Source: Escherichia coli (lineage in GTDB: Bacteria > Pseudomonadota > Gammaproteobacteria > Enterobacterales > Enterobacteriaceae). From it: a DNA stretch of 3,513 bases. Under the pieces are notes generated by a model. It made no database searches. It saw nothing but the letters and a program-made list of their open reading frames with translations, and was not told the origin of the DNA. The DNA lies in the NCBI RefSeq assembly GCF_003334335.1, contig NZ_QOWQ01000083.1. One strand, given 5' to 3'. Below, one piece after another: positions 1 through 3,513 of the stretch. A program made the translations under genes and the position numbers. The number at the start of each line of letters is the position of its first letter. Within the stretch, counting starts at the first letter, position 1.

Positions 1-203
1 CTTGCTAAATCTTCCGTCGTGACATCAATGTGACCACGTAGTGACACGCCGTGACATGTCGTGACATTTCGTGACGCGCTCACCAGAAGGTGGATATACA
101 CTGCCATCACTGTTGCGATTGGCTGTCCTGATACCCTGGCAATCGTTCGCCACTTGGGGTCATTTGGCATGTCATGCCACAATCTGAGCCAGGCATTAGC
201 CAT
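1..203 (-). CDS. Partial CDS (5' end only, runs off the window edge): putative phage replication-initiator / replisome-organizer-like protein
   Basis: Hand translation of the - strand from ATG at 203..201 gives MANAWLRLWHDMPNDPKWRTIARVSGQPIATVMAVYIHLLVSASRNVTTCHGVSLRGHIDVTTEDLA... with no stop down to position 1. It is absent from the ORF track only because no stop lies in the window. AGAGGTG Shine-Dalgarno lies a few nt upstream of the ATG. The W-x-R-L...D-P-K...LL-x-A N-terminal pattern recalls phage replisome-organizer N-domains (from memory). It sits directly downstream of the cro/cII-like genes, where lambdoid phages place replication genes. Confidence 0.45.
   Translation of the reverse strand, partial: MANAWLRLWHDMPNDPKWRTIARVSGQPIATVMAVYIHLLVSASRNVTTCHGVSLRGHIDVTTEDLA
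19..76. repeat. Iteron-like array: six direct repeats of GTGAC(A/C/G) phased at 10-11 bp
   Basis: GTGACA at 19, GTGACC at 30, GTGACA at 41, 51 and 61, GTGACG at 71. Spacings are 11, 11, 10, 10, 10 bp, about one helical turn. The array lies inside the 5' coding part of the leftward partial ORF. Confidence 0.85.
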
Positions 204-271
204 ACTCACCTCTTCTGATACCGAACTTTACCCACGAACTTCCGGAAGAAATCCGGTATAAATATTGTTGG

Positions 272-697
272 TCAATGCACAACAACAGCATTACCAGGCT
301 GACCACCACTGTTAGTCAGGGTGCCCCAGGCGATCGCTACAGCGACAAAATCATCCACATCTTTCACCAGCCGATCCCGTCGTTCGACGATCTCCCGGTA
401 ATATTCAGAACTGTGACTGCGCATACGGGCCACCAGCAAAGGCGGCATCGCCTTTTCGATCGCCGGTAACAGAGCCTGCATTTTTTCAACAGCATCAGGG
501 GTGTCTTTATCCAGCCAACGGAAAATTTTCTGGGTATTACGGGCCAGGGCTTCCGGATGGCTGTCGTCATACAGTTCCGGGAACGTCATTCCCAGCTCGA
601 AATACGCTTTGGTAATTTTCGCAGCCGGTACTTTTTCGCCGTCCGGATGCGCCCAGACATTCATCGCCATGCGGATGTGTTCATGCTTGATTTTCAT
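272..697 (-). CDS. ydaT: YdaT-family protein (CII-like prophage regulator; historically annotated 'putative toxin YdaT')
   Basis: 141-aa ORF starting MKIKHEHI..., which matches my recollection of the YdaT N-terminus of Rac-like prophages. Its start overlaps the upstream cro-like gene by 17 bp (681..697), implying translational coupling, in the cro-then-cII order of lambdoid phages. Confidence 0.8.
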   Translation of the reverse strand: MKIKHEHIRMAMNVWAHPDGEKVPAAKITKAYFELGMTFPELYDDSHPEALARNTQKIFRWLDKDTPDAVEKMQALLPAIEKAMPPLLVARMRSHSSEYYREIVERRDRLVKDVDDFVAVAIAWGTLTNSGGQPGNAVVVH

Positions 698-953
698 GAA
701 TCAACTCCGGTGCATTTGATGTGTTAACCTTGAATCCAACAGGTAAACCATCGGTTGGGTTAGGATAAATATCAGGGCGAATTTCATGCGGGGTAACTTC
801 CCACTTCATTAGCTGACATAACGGAATTACCTGCTTTGGGGGAACGTCAAAGCTAAACCATTGCCAAACAGTCTGTTGAGCGACCCCCATATAACGACCT
901 ATTTCAGCTTGAGTGTATTTCTGCCTAATTTTTTCGCGAGTGCTATCTAGCAT
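681..953 (-). CDS. ydaS: Cro-like HTH DNA-binding protein (YdaS-like)
   Basis: 90-aa ORF with a helix-turn-helix signature (QAEIGRYMGVAQQTVWQW). GAGGAG Shine-Dalgarno lies upstream of ATG 953..951. It is divergent from the repressor gene at 1063 across a ~110-bp regulatory region and is followed by the overlapping ydaT-like gene. Confidence 0.7.
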   Translation of the reverse strand: MLDSTREKIRQKYTQAEIGRYMGVAQQTVWQWFSFDVPPKQVIPLCQLMKWEVTPHEIRPDIYPNPTDGLPVGFKVNTSNAPELIHENQA

Positions 954-987
954 TTTGCTCTCCTCTAAAAAACTATAAGCAAAGCCT

Positions 988-1025
988 ACAATAAAAAACT
1001 GTACACGATCAACAGTTTTTTATTG
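988..1025. promoter_or_regulatory. Operator-like inverted repeat in the divergent intergenic region (O site 1): CAATAAAAAACTGT-N9-ACAGTTTTTTTATTG
   Basis: Left half-site 988..1001 and right half-site 1011..1025 are reverse complements apart from one extra T, with a 9-bp spacer. The region 954..1062 must contain the promoters of the cro-like and repressor genes. Candidate -10 for the leftward promoter is TATAGT (reverse complement of 971..976). Candidate -10 TAAAAT at 1051..1056 would make the repressor mRNA nearly leaderless, as for lambda cI from PRM. Confidence 0.6.
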
Positions 1026-1062
1026 TGATGCTTTTAACAGTATTTACCTGTAAAATTGAATA

Positions 1063-1464
1063 ATGATGAACGCCCTAGAAGTATCTATGTACAGAATCAG
1101 CAAGCTTCTTCAGGAAACTGGATGGAGCCAGGCTGAGCTTGCCCGTAGAATTGGTGTGACACAACAAACTGTTCAACAATGGGTCAGCGGTAAGGCTACA
1201 CCTAAAGCCTCAAGTTTGGATAAACTGGTTGAGGTTACAGGGCATCCATTGCATTGGTTTTTATTGCCTCCTGAAGAGGGGGAGCAAATTTTCACCCCTG
1301 ACACGATGAAAATTGGTCCTCGTCAACGCGAACTGCTCCAGGCTTTTAGTGCGTTTCCAGAGGAAGACCAAGAAAAAATGCTTCAAGAAATCAAAGACAA
1401 GAAAAAATCAATGGAAGAAACCATTGCCCGGTGGTTGGCGGCACAAAAAAGCCGCCGGGCGTGA
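1063..1464 (+). CDS. paaR2: HTH-XRE family transcriptional repressor (CI-like); regulator of the three-component PaaR-PaaA-ParE toxin-antitoxin module
   Basis: 133-aa ORF with a classic XRE HTH (SQAELARRIGVTQQTVQQWVSG) in the N-terminal half and a Lys/Glu-rich helical tail. It is divergent from the cro-like gene and immediately upstream of the antitoxin-toxin pair. The paralog assignment (paaR2 versus paaR1) is from memory and unverified. Confidence 0.75.
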   Translation: MMNALEVSMYRISKLLQETGWSQAELARRIGVTQQTVQQWVSGKATPKASSLDKLVEVTGHPLHWFLLPPEEGEQIFTPDTMKIGPRQRELLQAFSAFPEEDQEKMLQEIKDKKKSMEETIARWLAAQKSRRA

Positions 1465-1491
1465 CCACAGTACAAGAAGAGGAGTTATGCC

Positions 1492-1683
1492 ATGAGTACA
1501 GCCCTTTCTCCGATAGTTTCAGAATTCGAAACTACCGAACAAGAAAACAGTTACAACGAATGGTTACGCGCTAAAGTGGCGTCAAGCCTTGCAGACCCTC
1601 GTCCCTCAATTCCACATGATGAGGTAATGGCTGAAATGGAGAATCTTATTGCTCAAATTGCTGTAACTAACAGGAGCGAGTAA
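1492..1683 (+). CDS. paaA2: Type II antitoxin of a ParE-family toxin (PaaA2-like, small and likely disordered)
   Basis: 63-aa ORF MSTALSPIVSEFETTEQENSYNEWLRAKVA..., acidic and low in hydrophobic core residues. AAGAGGAG Shine-Dalgarno lies 7 nt upstream of ATG 1492. Its TAA stop shares one base with the toxin start (TAATG at 1681..1685). Size and sequence match my recollection of PaaA2 from E. coli O157:H7. Confidence 0.75.
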   Translation: MSTALSPIVSEFETTEQENSYNEWLRAKVASSLADPRPSIPHDEVMAEMENLIAQIAVTNRSE

Positions 1684-1970
1684 TGTTACCCATTTTGTGG
1701 CTACCATCTGCTCGCGATGATTTCCGTCAGATCGTAGCCTATATTGCTAAGGAAAATATTCCTGCAGCACGCAGACTAAAAATACGGATTGAAACGTCTG
1801 TTTTAGCCCTCTCTGAGCATCCATATCTATATCCGCCAAGTGATCGAGTATCCGGTTTGCGGGAAATTGTGGTTCACCCTAATTATATCGTTTTGTACCG
1901 AGTAGCAGCTTCAAGCATTGAAATTGCAAATATTGTGCATGCCCGCCGACAATTTCCCTTCCCTATCTGA
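1683..1970 (+). CDS. parE2: ParE/RelE-superfamily toxin (ParE2-like)
   Basis: 95-aa ORF with the ParE-like pattern (N-terminal L-P-S-A-x-DF-x-Q-I-x-YI, central REIVV-x-P-x-YIVLYRV, C-terminal I-x-N-I-V-H-x-R-R). The start is coupled to the antitoxin stop, and CAGGAG Shine-Dalgarno lies 6 nt upstream. Confidence 0.8.
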   Translation: MLPILWLPSARDDFRQIVAYIAKENIPAARRLKIRIETSVLALSEHPYLYPPSDRVSGLREIVVHPNYIVLYRVAASSIEIANIVHARRQFPFPI

Positions 1971-1987
1971 ACTGAACAATTTTCACA

Positions 1988-2013
1988 CTCCCTCATTCGA
2001 GGGAGTTTTTTTT
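1988..2013 (+). terminator. Rho-independent terminator of the repressor-antitoxin-toxin operon
   Basis: Perfect 7-bp stem CTCCCTC (1988..1994) / GAGGGAG (1999..2005) with a 4-nt loop ATTC, followed by eight T (2006..2013), 18 bp after the toxin stop codon. Confidence 0.85.
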
Positions 2014-2023
2014 GCCCAACACA

Positions 2024-2067
2024 ACAATTAAAAACTGTTGACACAAAACAGTTTTTAATTGTAGATT
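2024..2067 (+). promoter_or_regulatory. Second copy of the operator inverted repeat (O site 2) overlapping a strong rightward promoter
   Basis: CAATTAAAAACTGT (2025..2038) and ACAGTTTTTAATTG (2048..2061) are perfect reverse complements with a 9-bp spacer, extendable to 15-bp arms at 2024..2062. Consensus -35 TTGACA (2038..2043) is built from the left half-site plus spacer, and -10 TAGATT (2062..2067) follows an 18-bp spacer. The half-site is the same as at 988..1025 apart from single-base differences. Confidence 0.65.
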
Positions 2068-2246
2068 ATTTCCACTACCCCACCCCGCCCCACAGAACGC
2101 CAGGCAATACTTCGAGTTACCCGGCAGTGGTCAGGGGTTAAGTAGCCAGCCCGAGGCGTATGAACATGACGGCGGGAACACTTTATATAACAGCGCAGCA
2201 GGTTTTTAGTTCCGCTACCCCGGCGTTAAGGGGAAATGAGGTCAGC

Positions 2247-2399
2247 ATGGATACTATCGAGCTTGGCAACAACGAATCTCTGGTATGTGGAGTATTCCCC
2301 AACCTGGACGGCACGTTTACCGCGATGACGTATACCAGAAGCAAAACGTTTAAAACGGAAGCTGGCGCGCGTCGCTGGTTAGCAAGAAACTCTGACTGA
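2247..2399 (+). CDS. Small prophage protein, YdfA/YdaF-like (DUF1391-type); start uncertain, ORF is open from 2160
   Basis: GAGG Shine-Dalgarno lies 5 nt upstream of ATG 2247, giving 50 aa (MDTIELGNNESLV...RRWLARNSD). This size class matches the ~51-aa YdfA/YdaF proteins that follow the repressor gene in Qin/Rac prophages (from memory). The upstream in-frame ATGs at 2160 and 2166 lie within a possible secondary promoter (TGAACA 2161..2166, TATATA 2185..2190). Confidence 0.55.
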   Translation: MDTIELGNNESLVCGVFPNLDGTFTAMTYTRSKTFKTEAGARRWLARNSD

Positions 2400-2497
2400 T
2401 GAAGGTTAGTAATTAAAGAGTTCTCCACAGGCGAAGTGGAATACGTTCGCCGGACACGGGTAAGCATTCGGCATGCTCTTTAACAATCTGGGTATTC

Positions 2498-2944
2498 CTA
2501 ACCACAAAGGAATCGCATCAATTTGGATTTTGCAGACAGTTTCTCTTGTTGTTCTACGGAGATTCCTATTTTGATCTGGGTTTTTAAGATTGCGATATCT
2601 TTAAGCGACGACCAAATATTATCATCTGTTTTTTCCAGGAGCTTTAACTGCATTTTCAATTCCGAATCGGAATATTTTTCTGCATCATCATAAAGCTGCA
2701 GATATTCTGCGGATTTTCTCATTGCGTTACCTGACTTTTGTCCGAATCCGTAAATCGTTTGAACGGTTGCTATCACAACAATGAGAACTCCAGAAACTTC
2801 AGGAATAAATCCACCAATGACAGATGAACCGAGGATAATACTCACCACTGAGAAAAGTTTATCGAGACGACCAGTCGCTACAGAGAATAGTTGTTCAAGA
2901 AAATAATCATATAAAACCCTGTCAAGAATATCATCCCGGTCCAT
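2498..2944 (-). CDS. Hypothetical small inner-membrane protein: N-terminal amphipathic segment, two predicted transmembrane helices, charged helical C-terminal tail
   Basis: 148-aa ORF with AGGTGA Shine-Dalgarno 6 nt upstream of ATG 2944..2942. Hydrophobic stretches LFSVVSIILGSSVIGGFI and GVLIVVIATVQTIYGF are separated by the short loop PEVS, then a Lys/Glu/Asp-rich tail follows. The gene is convergent with the YdfA-like ORF and visibly AT-richer than flanking genes. No homolog recognised from memory. Confidence 0.7.
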   Translation of the reverse strand: MDRDDILDRVLYDYFLEQLFSVATGRLDKLFSVVSIILGSSVIGGFIPEVSGVLIVVIATVQTIYGFGQKSGNAMRKSAEYLQLYDDAEKYSDSELKMQLKLLEKTDDNIWSSLKDIAILKTQIKIGISVEQQEKLSAKSKLMRFLCG

Positions 2945-3003
2945 ATATCATCACCTGCTTGTTTGATTGTTGCTGTTCCCCCTCTCCTCTGAAGGAGCTG
3001 GAG

Positions 3004-3192
3004 ATGGTTTTGGTCGAATGTTTTTCTCAGGTATATGTTTCCTGGTATTCGGAATGTCCGCCCTGTCCGCAGGCTTACCAGTACCTGAACAATTCTTTTG
3101 AACCACCATATAAAACACCTTCCTGTTGTTGGGGATATCCAGATTATACAGATTTCCTGTTATTGGGGAATGACGGAAACCACCTCGCCTGA
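3004..3192 (+). CDS. Hypothetical Cys-rich small protein (62 aa); may be non-coding
   Basis: Consensus AAGGAG Shine-Dalgarno (2992..2997) lies exactly 6 nt upstream of ATG 3004. Product MVLVECFSQVYVSWYSECPPCPQAYQYLNNSFEPPYKTPSCCWGYPDYTDFLLLGNDGNHLA has 6 Cys including C-P-P-C. An equally long low-complexity ORF overlaps it on the opposite strand, and no family is recognised. Confidence 0.25.
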   Translation: MVLVECFSQVYVSWYSECPPCPQAYQYLNNSFEPPYKTPSCCWGYPDYTDFLLLGNDGNHLA

Positions 3193-3407
3193 CGTGGTTA
3201 AAAGCAGGCACACAACACGAAAGCGCACGGCGAGATTCCTTTGCATATAAGGCTTGTCGTTAAATTTCTTCGACCGTGCACTTCCGGTTGTGGCAGTCCG
3301 CGAAATGGCGCGGCGGTAAGTATGGCTGGGGCTTCCTCCATTGCTCCAGAAAATGCACCGGGTCGTCAGGTTGACCATACGCTTAAGTGACAGCCCCGCC
3401 ACAATAC

Positions 3408-3465
3408 CCATGTGTAGTATTTGGTGGCATCAGTTCTACTCCGTGACTGCTCTGCCACCCTTTTT
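3408..3465 (+). ncRNA. dicF: DicF-like prophage small RNA (cell-division-inhibitor sRNA family), 3' end defined by its intrinsic terminator
   Basis: TTTGGTGGCATCAGTTCTACTCCGTGACTGCTCTGCCACCCTTTTT is near-identical to my recollection of E. coli DicF (..TTTGGCGGTATCAGTTTTACTCCGTGACTGCTCTGCCGCCCTTTTT). The terminal stem differs by one compensatory change per arm (GGTGG/CCACC versus GGCGG/CCGCC). The 5' end is approximate because DicF is processed from a longer transcript, and the 5' ~15 nt do not match my memory of DicF. Confidence 0.55.
3423..3465 (+). terminator. Rho-independent terminator (3' hairpin of the DicF-like RNA)
   Basis: GGTGGCA (3423..3429) pairs with TGCCACC (3453..3459), with internal CAG/CTG pairing, followed by C then TTTTT (3461..3465). 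Orientation is + only: on the - strand the T-run would precede the stem. Confidence 0.6.
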
Positions 3466-3513
3466 AAAGTGAATTTTGTGATGCGGTGAATGCGGCTATG
3501 CGCACGCGGAACA

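Follow-up and report, generated by a model that had tools for sequence, protein, structure and literature searches.

The DNA analysed here (the window) is a stretch of 3,513 bases that makes up the complete draft contig QOWQ01000083.1 of the Escherichia coli assembly GCA_003334335.1, and its gene content identifies it as the immunity and early-left part of a lambdoid prophage of the Rac/Qin type. An initial annotation had placed and named six of its genes correctly and had proposed, from base composition assessed by eye, that a toxin-antitoxin (TA) pair beside the prophage repressor and a membrane-protein gene further downstream were passengers picked up separately at a hotspot near the repressor. 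We consider it likely that the window was instead built by homologous recombination from interchangeable modules, with two AT-rich modules set in a conserved backbone of normal GC content.

The first AT-rich module would be the whole immunity module, running from about 680/704 to 2070/2078 with about 42.5% GC, and holding a cro analogue, an operator palindrome, a PaaR-type repressor, paaA-parE, a terminator and an OL/PL analogue. The first gene of this module is the ydaS-type cro analogue on the minus strand (681-953; PHROG 35, PF15943), within which homology to the RacR-type prophage of strain G1/2 stops at 703. Between it and the repressor gene lies the OR-type operator, a 39-nt palindrome at 988-1026 that consists of a perfect 15-nt inverted repeat, ACAATAAAAAACTGT-N9-ACAGTTTTTTATTGT. 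The plus strand then carries the helix-turn-helix (HTH) repressor, a CI/DicA analogue of the PaaR type (1063-1464) with matches to the DicA subfamily and to HTH models and with no S24 peptidase domain. The repressor gene stops 27 nt before that of a PaaA-type antitoxin in the same orientation (1492-1683; 63 aa, no DNA-binding domain), which resembles PaaA2 and matches NF050103 at 96 bits and PF21217 (PaaA2, precomputed for an identical protein), and this is followed by the gene for a 95-aa ParE-type toxin (1683-1970, plus strand; PF05016, E=2.7e-15). An intrinsic terminator on the plus strand (1987-2013), with an 8-bp stem that includes 5 G-C pairs and is followed by T8, closes the repressor-antitoxin-toxin operon. 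The right end of the module is the OL/PL analogue (2024-2067, plus strand), a second operator palindrome at 2024-2062 overlapped by a PL-type promoter-like match, TTGACA-18-TAGATT. The two palindromes, each of them a perfect inverted repeat, are 79% identical to one another, and the TA pair lies in the region that they bound, upstream of the terminator and of OL/PL. A -10-like TAAAAT (1051-1056) can be read 6 nt before the repressor ATG, where there is no Shine-Dalgarno sequence, and the repressor is probably translated from a leaderless mRNA by analogy with paaR2, the mRNA of which was shown by experiment to be leaderless (PMC8630535).

By homology the repressor-antitoxin-toxin block is a paaR-paaA-parE three-component system of the kind found in the cryptic prophages of E. 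coli O157:H7. The toxin aligns with ParE2 (PDB 5CW7) at a phmmer E of 3.9e-37, with 61 of 92 residues identical (66%), and the antitoxin with PaaA2 (PDB 3ZBE) at E=1.5e-22, with 40 of 53 residues identical (75%). In one of the related loci compared here (L008) the TA proteins are identical to the PaaA2 and ParE2 of the crystal structures, and residues 37-133 of the window repressor are 43% identical to the repressor of that locus, the C-terminal motif ...ARWLAAQKSRRA being common to both. The gene order, divergent from ydaS-ydaT, fits the published description (PMC8630535). In the O157:H7 prophage CP-933P, the part of CI is taken by PaaR2 and those of Cro and CII by YdaS and YdaT (Jurenas et al. 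2021, PMC8630535); downstream of the TA pair, a PL-type promoter has duplicate copies of the operators, and the paaR2-paaA2-parE2 locus is both bistable and addictive (PMC8630535). Toxicity, neutralisation by the cognate antitoxin and plasmid stabilisation have been demonstrated experimentally in the O157 systems. A second TA pair made up of YdaS and YdaT is ruled out by the published evidence for Cro and CII analogues (PMC8630535); the RefSeq name "toxin YdaT family protein" and the Pfam names YdaS_toxin and YdaT_toxin are misleading in this respect.

The second AT-rich module would be an antisense cassette coding for a proline-rich small protein and a SLATT-like protein with two transmembrane segments. 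Around the two modules the backbone would be made up of an O-like replication gene and ydaT, the PL leader with a DUF1391 gene, and the dicF region. The CII analogue ydaT (272-697, minus strand; PHROG 163 CII-like, E=2.9e-46; PF06254 YdaT_toxin) and the DUF1391 gene (2247-2399, plus strand; PF07151), which belongs to the ydfA/ydaF family according to the RefSeq annotation of homologues and is the first gene of the PL operon, are both of normal GC content. A full-length DicF small RNA gene of the PL operon also forms part of the backbone (3409-3460, plus strand; Rfam RF00039, 62 bits against a gathering score of 48, E=1.9e-12), from which it follows that the PL-side operon leads to dicF and dicB, as it does in Qin.

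Base composition and exchange of modules

The GC content of the whole window is 45.9%. The impression that the cro/cII-like genes are GC-balanced holds for ydaT, with 52.3% GC and 55.6% GC at third codon positions (GC3), but not for cro, which at 42.9% (GC3 36.3%) is as AT-rich as the antitoxin (43.8%, GC3 35.9%) and the toxin (43.8%, GC3 33.3%), the repressor being intermediate (46.8%, GC3 43.3%). The contrast between ydaT and cro is significant (p=0.02) and that between cro and the repressor with the TA pair is not (p=0.72). Nor is the repressor-TA block, at 45.3%, significantly AT-richer than the cro/cII pair at 49.1% (p=0.14), contrary to what had been supposed. The DUF1391 gene has 49.7% GC and a GC3 of 54.9%. 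It was correctly seen that the gene at 2498-2944 is especially AT-rich: at 38.0% GC (GC3 34.2%) it lies below both cro/cII (p=0.0003) and the repressor with the TA pair (p=0.014), and the 450-nt segment of lowest GC is 2479-2928 with 37.3% (shuffle-based scan p=0.006). For segments of 150 nt the minimum is the operator region, 914-1063, with 30.7% GC.

Codon usage was examined by re-encoding each protein 3,000 times with the codon preferences of conserved genes in related prophages, those for replication and exonuclease. The GC3 of ydaT (z=+0.8) and of the DUF1391 gene (z=+0.4) is near that of the backbone, and GC3 is depleted in cro (-3.7), the repressor (-2.6), the antitoxin (-2.6), the toxin (-3.6) and the gene for the 148-aa membrane protein (-4.7). 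Both GC content and codon usage mark the 148-aa gene as deviant, as had been expected of it, but they group cro with the repressor and TA pair and not with ydaT. No step in GC was found at the cro/repressor or repressor/TA borders by per-gene GC, segmentation or the codon test.

Heterogeneity in GC along the window is modest, with binned chi-square tests giving p=0.001-0.016. Segmentation at a penalty of 8, at which shuffled sequences average 0.28 change points, divides the window into 1-675 (51.9% GC), 676-2070 (42.5%), 2071-2475 (52.6%), 2476-2934 (37.3%) and 2935-3513 (49.6%). There are therefore two AT-rich compartments, the whole immunity region including cro and the 148-aa gene, with a GC-normal stretch between them. 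The interval 1063-2944, to which the initial proposal had been tied, also takes in the repressor, in other words the CI analogue of the prophage itself, as well as the PL leader and the DUF1391 gene, both of normal GC. Long A/T runs had been remarked upon in the same interval and are indeed somewhat enriched there (12 runs of at least 5 observed, 4.6 expected from shuffles, p=0.003), and their density is similar inside and outside (6.4 and 4.9 per kb). Of the runs of at least 6, three (A6) lie towards the 3' end of the repressor gene, one (T8) is the terminator tail and one (T6) is within the membrane-protein gene.

Breaks in homology, at 703/704 and 2078/2079, lie no more than about 30 nt away from the borders in composition at 676 and 2070. 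The breaks at about 703 and 2079 are seen against RacR-type, DicA-like and Rac-like prophages, in which the immunity module is swapped as a block. In strain G1/2 (L004), which has RacR-type immunity and no TA pair, the only matches to the window are 342-703 and 2079-3513, and from the DUF1391 gene (2247) onward identity is 99-100%, the 148-aa gene included (99.8%). The prophage of AR_0017 (L001) can be aligned with 1-2407, where the stretch from cro to OL is 98-100% identical and the cro-repressor-TA module 99-100%, and again with 3200-3513, unrelated DNA standing in place of 2408-3199. The 148-aa gene is thus missing beside an identical immunity module and present beside one of the RacR type, and the proposal that it is a separate passenger is borne out. 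A third arrangement is found in strain 90-3040 (L006), where cro and the N-terminal part of the repressor are different, similarity to the window begins again at 1334, within the repressor gene, and a diverged TA pair is followed by the 148-aa gene at 99.6% identity.

Comparison with prophages that have another gene in the slot at 2498-2944, or no TA genes, had been proposed as a check. In a Rac-type prophage (L007) the slot is occupied by sieB on the same strand, and in Qin-type relatives by ydfB/ydfC and small antisense open reading frames (ORFs). No copy of the same repressor without the TA genes was seen in complete E. coli genomes, a result that rests on the counts and the 60-row spread sample described below, from which a rare class could escape. 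A hairpin, GCCGGACACGGGTAAGCATTCGGC, at 2445-2468 is conserved in relatives; it lies to the left of the cassette in the window and, in L001-L003, to the right of the slot genes and directly before the homology upstream of dicF, so that the slot has two distinct insertion points.

The same distribution of GC is found by position across seven related loci, in which cro has 40-48% GC, repressors 41-47%, TA genes 43-47% and slot genes 36-39%, with ydaT at 51-53% and replication genes at 52-56%. Repressors from immunity regions that have no TA pair are equally or more AT-rich (RacR 42.8%, a Rac-like repressor 40.7%), and amongst the slot and PL-side genes of relatives sieB has 37.2% GC, small antisense ORFs 36-38% and dicB 37-42%. 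Low GC marks lysogen-expressed, often exchanged modules in every relative examined and is not specific to the TA pair.

The frequency of the modules was determined in 5,426 complete E. coli genomes, a match being required to cover at least 80% of the query. Cro with the repressor was found in 518 genomes, the repressor with the TA pair and OL in 547, the TA pair alone in 659 and the 148-aa gene in 72. Two kinds of match to 954-2250 were seen in an evenly spaced sample of 60 rows of the ranking, some spanning the TA pair and the rest starting only at about 2079. No record in the phage collection has the TA-bearing immunity region, the flanks alone being matched.

Two further draft assemblies carry the window sequence at 100% identity. 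A false join in this 3.5-kb draft contig is unlikely in view of these identical copies and of the complete genome L006, in which the architecture is the same but combined with a different PaaR type. Both ends of the contig, which is also labelled L013 amongst the loci compared, fall within sequences that are repeated among lambdoid prophages. At the left end is the 5' end of an O-like replication gene (1-203, minus strand; DnaT-like/replisome organiser) of GC-normal backbone, recognised by homology to L001 2166-3203 and with a start near 203 read from the sequence. Six GTGAC(A) repeats with 10-nt spacing at 18-76, in the 5' part of this gene, are possible origin iterons, and in L003 and L006 a related stretch is found some 250 nt further into the O gene.

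History of the toxin-antitoxin pair

Separate acquisition of the TA pair had been argued from its composition, and on that ground it does not stand: cro has the same GC and GC3, immunity regions that have no TA pair are as AT-rich, and the pair lies inside the operators. With a cro-like composition and a place in an operator-bounded module, its base composition is no evidence for an arrival separate from that of cro and the repressor. The sequences of relatives are more informative. Compared with the proteins of a second O157 copy, the repressor of the window is 98% identical, the antitoxin 90% and the toxin 85%; this copy is presumably the CP-933M paaR1 system. At the nucleotide level, the window and the O157-type copy differ at 17-24 positions per 100 nt in parE (window 1681-1980, L002 3350-3640) and at 3-6 in cro, the repressor and the antitoxin gene, such that parE is 78% identical and the rest 94-98%, with 35 of 96 parE codons differing synonymously. 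Divergence jumps exactly at the start of parE, and recombination has probably had a breakpoint there, where the antitoxin gene meets the toxin gene, which is odd for a cognate pair.

TA-linked repressors of other specificity (L006, L008) have only their C-terminal 60 or so residues in common with that of the window (58% and 43% identity), ending in ...ARWLAAQKSRRA; no relationship extends to the N-terminal DNA-binding parts, to the cro genes or to the operators. The break in homology inside the repressor gene, of which 1334-1464 is retained, suggests domain swapping of the DNA-binding part, and we infer a long association of the TA pair with the C-terminal part of the repressor, during which the specificity determinants were exchanged. 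Over longer times the toxin family is horizontally mobile, since relatives of the toxin are encoded on plasmids, one of 4.8 kb in Acetobacter aceti (72% amino-acid identity) and others in Pseudomonas syringae (58%). That an ancestral immunity region acquired paaA-parE at some earlier time is plausible, and a proposal to this effect has been published (PMC8630535).

The antisense SLATT-like cassette

The cassette consists of two genes on the opposite strand within 2408-3199 and has an AT-rich core at 2476-2934 (37.3% GC). Its main gene (2498-2944, minus strand) encodes a 148-aa protein with a hydrophobic hairpin at residues 30-66, predicted to cross the membrane twice. An AlphaFold2 model of this protein, with nine homologues, is all-helical (pLDDT 87, pTM 0.78), and when it was compared by Foldseek with AFDB50 there were 88 matches at E<=0.001, many of them annotated as SLATT, with a TM of 0.85-0.94 and 20-31% identity, both sides of the comparison being predicted models. 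The fold search of solved structures in the PDB gave no match at E<=0.001. An exhaustive profile search recovered 191 cluster representatives, all single-domain and of similar size. The protein is a member of PHROG 6315, which is annotated without a function, and it has no match in Pfam at E<=10 and none in NCBIfam at default thresholds. No SMODS, SLOG or other nucleotide-signalling enzyme was found in the contexts examined, the neighbours in the window being DUF1391, the proline-rich ORF and dicF/dicB. Homology to SieB was considered and rejected, as BLASTP gave no alignment, PF14163 gave no match and the hhalign probability was 0.3%.

Upstream of the main gene, a small ORF (2951-3109, minus strand; 52 aa) that carries no RefSeq annotation and has no PHROG match ends 6 nt before the 148-aa gene and is preceded by the Shine-Dalgarno sequence GGAAGGTG. 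A small ORF of 38-52 aa that ends 6-18 nt upstream of the SLATT-like gene was present in all five of the contexts examined, namely the window, Providencia phage PSTNGR2lys, phage EKP1, a P2-like Salmonella prophage and another enterobacterial contig, and these share the proline-rich motif ...IPNxRKHIPEKN(I/V)RP(T/K)PPPP.... A putative cassette promoter (3120-3169, minus strand) can be read further upstream, with a perfect TATAAT (3148-3143) 34 nt before the small ORF and no good -35 element. Direct repeats of 16 nt, TCCCCAAYAACAGGAA (15/16 identical), flank the TATAAT at 3154-3169 and 3120-3135, the proximal copy overlapping the Shine-Dalgarno sequence of the small ORF, and may possibly form a regulatory site. 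A consensus scan of the minus strand downstream of 2498 found no intrinsic terminator for the cassette.

Amongst the related loci the cassette is absent from L001, L002 and L003, present in L004, L006 and L011, and at other genome positions in L009, L010 and L019. It runs antisense to the neighbouring genes in each of four separate genomic locations, it does so in the Providencia phage, in EKP1 and in the P2-like Salmonella prophage, and it is found beside four types of immunity, those with PaaR1-like, 166-aa PaaR-type, RacR and S24-peptidase repressors. On this distribution the 148-aa gene and the small ORF behave as a separately exchangeable, moron-like passenger. Its fold, its orientation and a position equivalent to that of sieB are compatible with a lysogen-expressed, membrane-acting exclusion or abortive-infection function, a suggestion that we make tentatively. 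Going somewhat further, and more speculatively, the cassette might be an undescribed abortive-infection/superinfection-exclusion system, a moron that moves among lambdoid, P2-like and other temperate phages and replaces sieB in Rac/Qin-type prophages, with the small protein as its sensor, inhibitor or membrane-targeting partner.

Origin of the two AT-rich modules and likeness to known systems

Gene order, operators, promoter- and terminator-like sites and homology are all seen in the window, and it is from these that binding, co-transcription, toxicity and addiction are inferred in what follows. By analogy with CP-933P the repressor would bind both the OR and OL palindromes, shutting off cro-ydaT and the PL operon (DUF1391 ... 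dicF, dicB), and would keep its own leaderless operon on. As the repressor would drive its own operon, antitoxin and ParE would be made in the lysogen, and a stable toxin would be freed if the immunity module was lost or replaced, making the module addictive. The cassette, judged by its fold, position and orientation, may be an independent transcription unit that is active in the lysogen, targets the membrane and serves as a functional counterpart of the sieB of Rac.

The history that had been proposed initially, in which a GC-balanced backbone of cro, cII and repressor genes gained two foreign passengers separately at a repressor-proximal hotspot and AT-richness is the trace of their origin, now seems improbable as a whole. 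The membrane-protein gene does conform to it, being significantly AT-rich and assorting independently of the TA pair, and for the pair itself one can point to its absence from many related immunity regions, to the plasmid-borne toxin relatives in Acetobacter aceti (72%) and Pseudomonas syringae (58%) and to the separate divergence history of parE. However, cro matches the TA pair in GC and GC3 with the repressor intermediate and no step at the borders, immunity regions that have no TA pair are just as AT-rich, and the genome counts for cro with the repressor (518) and for the repressor with the TA pair and OL (547) are similar, with no repressor-only class in the sampled rows. Furthermore the C-terminal part and the TA pair are common to PaaR-type repressors of different specificity, which makes the pair an old resident of the module and not a recent addition. 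At the other extreme, that there is no meaningful compositional structure and that the impression gained by eye was a chance fluctuation in 3.5 kb is very hard to credit, even if strictly penalised segmentation places no change point, several scan windows are marginal and the comparison of cro/cII with the repressor and TA pair gave p=0.14: the chi-square tests, the 450-nt minimum and z scores down to -4.7 speak against it, the segment borders fall within about 30 nt of homology breakpoints that were defined independently, and the recurrence of the pattern in seven independent related loci already contradicts it.

More deserving of attention, though still doubtful as a full account, is the idea that AT-richness reflects function and position and not ancestry, genes that a repressed prophage expresses or that lie in regulatory DNA being AT-rich through amino-acid content (as in membrane or lysine-rich proteins), the density of operators and promoters, or selection for low expression or silencing, in which case GC would be silent on acquisition. 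Every occupant of the same positions is AT-rich (cro/repressor pairs, sieB, antisense ORFs, dicB), the lowest 150-nt segment is the operator region, and amino acids alone bring the expected GC of the 148-aa gene to 44%. Against this, GC3 is depleted beyond what the amino acids predict in cro, the repressor, the antitoxin, the toxin and the 148-aa gene, and the compositional blocks coincide with recombination breakpoints, as would be expected for modules that circulate in a wider, AT-richer phage gene pool. Explanations from function and from ancestry are compatible and do not exclude one another. GC is weak evidence of acquisition history, as low GC is general to the variable, lysogen-expressed modules of this phage group and amino acids account for about half of the deficit of the membrane-protein gene.

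Assembly of the window from exchanged modules is thus the reading that we prefer, and several observations weigh against it or against the identities given to its parts. Dynamic-programming segmentation with a penalty of the Bayesian information criterion type placed no change point in the window, recursive binary segmentation likewise placed none at permutation p<0.01, the blocks emerged only under the lighter, shuffle-calibrated penalty, and the immunity block and the backbone are only about 9 GC points apart. The residues of the 148-aa protein predict 44.1% GC, where about 38% is observed and the backbone has 52%, so that amino acids explain about half of its deficit. As parE diverges far more than cro, the repressor and the antitoxin gene, the immunity module is not a single unit of inheritance, and the exact combination of modules in the window was found in 0 of the 5,426 complete E. 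coli genomes at the coverage stated above. PADLOC returned no match for the TA pair and none for the cassette. The SLATT assignment is further weakened by the SLATT models, which none of 74 family members reach at E<=0.001, and by NF033632 (SLATT_4), to which 7 of 10 family members give in-register matches of 14-24 bits, below the cut-off of 55.

It is textbook knowledge that lambdoid phages have mosaic, AT-rich immunity regions and carry morons, and the repressor-TA block belongs to a system that has already been dissected in O157:H7; nothing in the window departs from known lambdoid biology except the SLATT-like cassette, which alone is mildly new. For annotation it follows that the gene called "repressor" is the prophage's CI analogue, that the TA pair is part of the immunity module, and that a pair of this kind should not be taken for a separate insertion on the strength of GC alone. 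With its alternative antisense cargo of sieB, small ORFs or the SLATT-like cassette, the slot that follows DUF1391 is a cheap place in which to seek prophage exclusion functions.

The closest known systems are paaR2-paaA2-parE2 of CP-933P and paaR1-paaA1-parE1 of CP-933M in E. coli O157:H7 (Hallez et al. 2010, as cited in PMC8630535 and PMC4803016). The window has in common with them the order of HTH repressor, 63-aa PaaA and ParE, the divergence from ydaS-ydaT and the DicB/DicF-side genes downstream, and shares with CP-933P the presence of operator copies at both OR and OL. It differs from CP-933P in the operator itself, which is AAAAACTGT-N9-ACAGTTTTT where CP-933P has repeats of the GTTTAGTAA type, and in the N-terminal domain of the repressor, which is unrelated to that of PaaR2.

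There is also a likeness to lambda, in which rexA-rexB lie with cI between PRM and OL/PL in a region that is AT-richer than the replication and structural genes (a textbook arrangement; also PMC8630535, section 9). As in cI-rexA-rexB, the accessory genes of the window stand between the repressor and OL/PL and, as predicted from the sequence, would be co-transcribed with the repressor, ended by a terminator and expressed in the lysogen; the cargo in the window is a ParE-type TA pair and not RexAB, however, and the repressor has no S24 autocleavage domain. The cassette resembles sieB of Rac, lambda and P22 (PF14163) in its slot between the DUF1391/ydaF gene and the kil/dicF-dicB genes, in being antisense to the PL operon, in size (148 aa in the window, 162 aa in SieB) and in GC (38.0% in the window, 37.2% in sieB), but there is no sequence or profile similarity between the proteins and the 148-aa protein is a positional analogue of SieB, not a homologue.

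SLATT domains (SMODS and SLOG-associating 2TM effector domains) were named from the comparative genomics of conflict systems. Like them, the modelled protein of the window has a two-transmembrane hairpin flanked by helices in an all-helical domain of about 150 aa; unlike them, it falls below every curated hidden Markov model threshold and stands alone, with a proline-rich ORF of 38-52 aa as its partner. Finally, morons are independent transcription units of deviant composition that are present or absent between related lambdoid phages (PMC3594210). Whilst the promoter of the cassette is only a -10-like match and no clear intrinsic terminator was found for it, the cassette is like a moron in its presence/absence polymorphism, its antisense orientation, its lower GC and its insertion at sites that vary with the type of phage.

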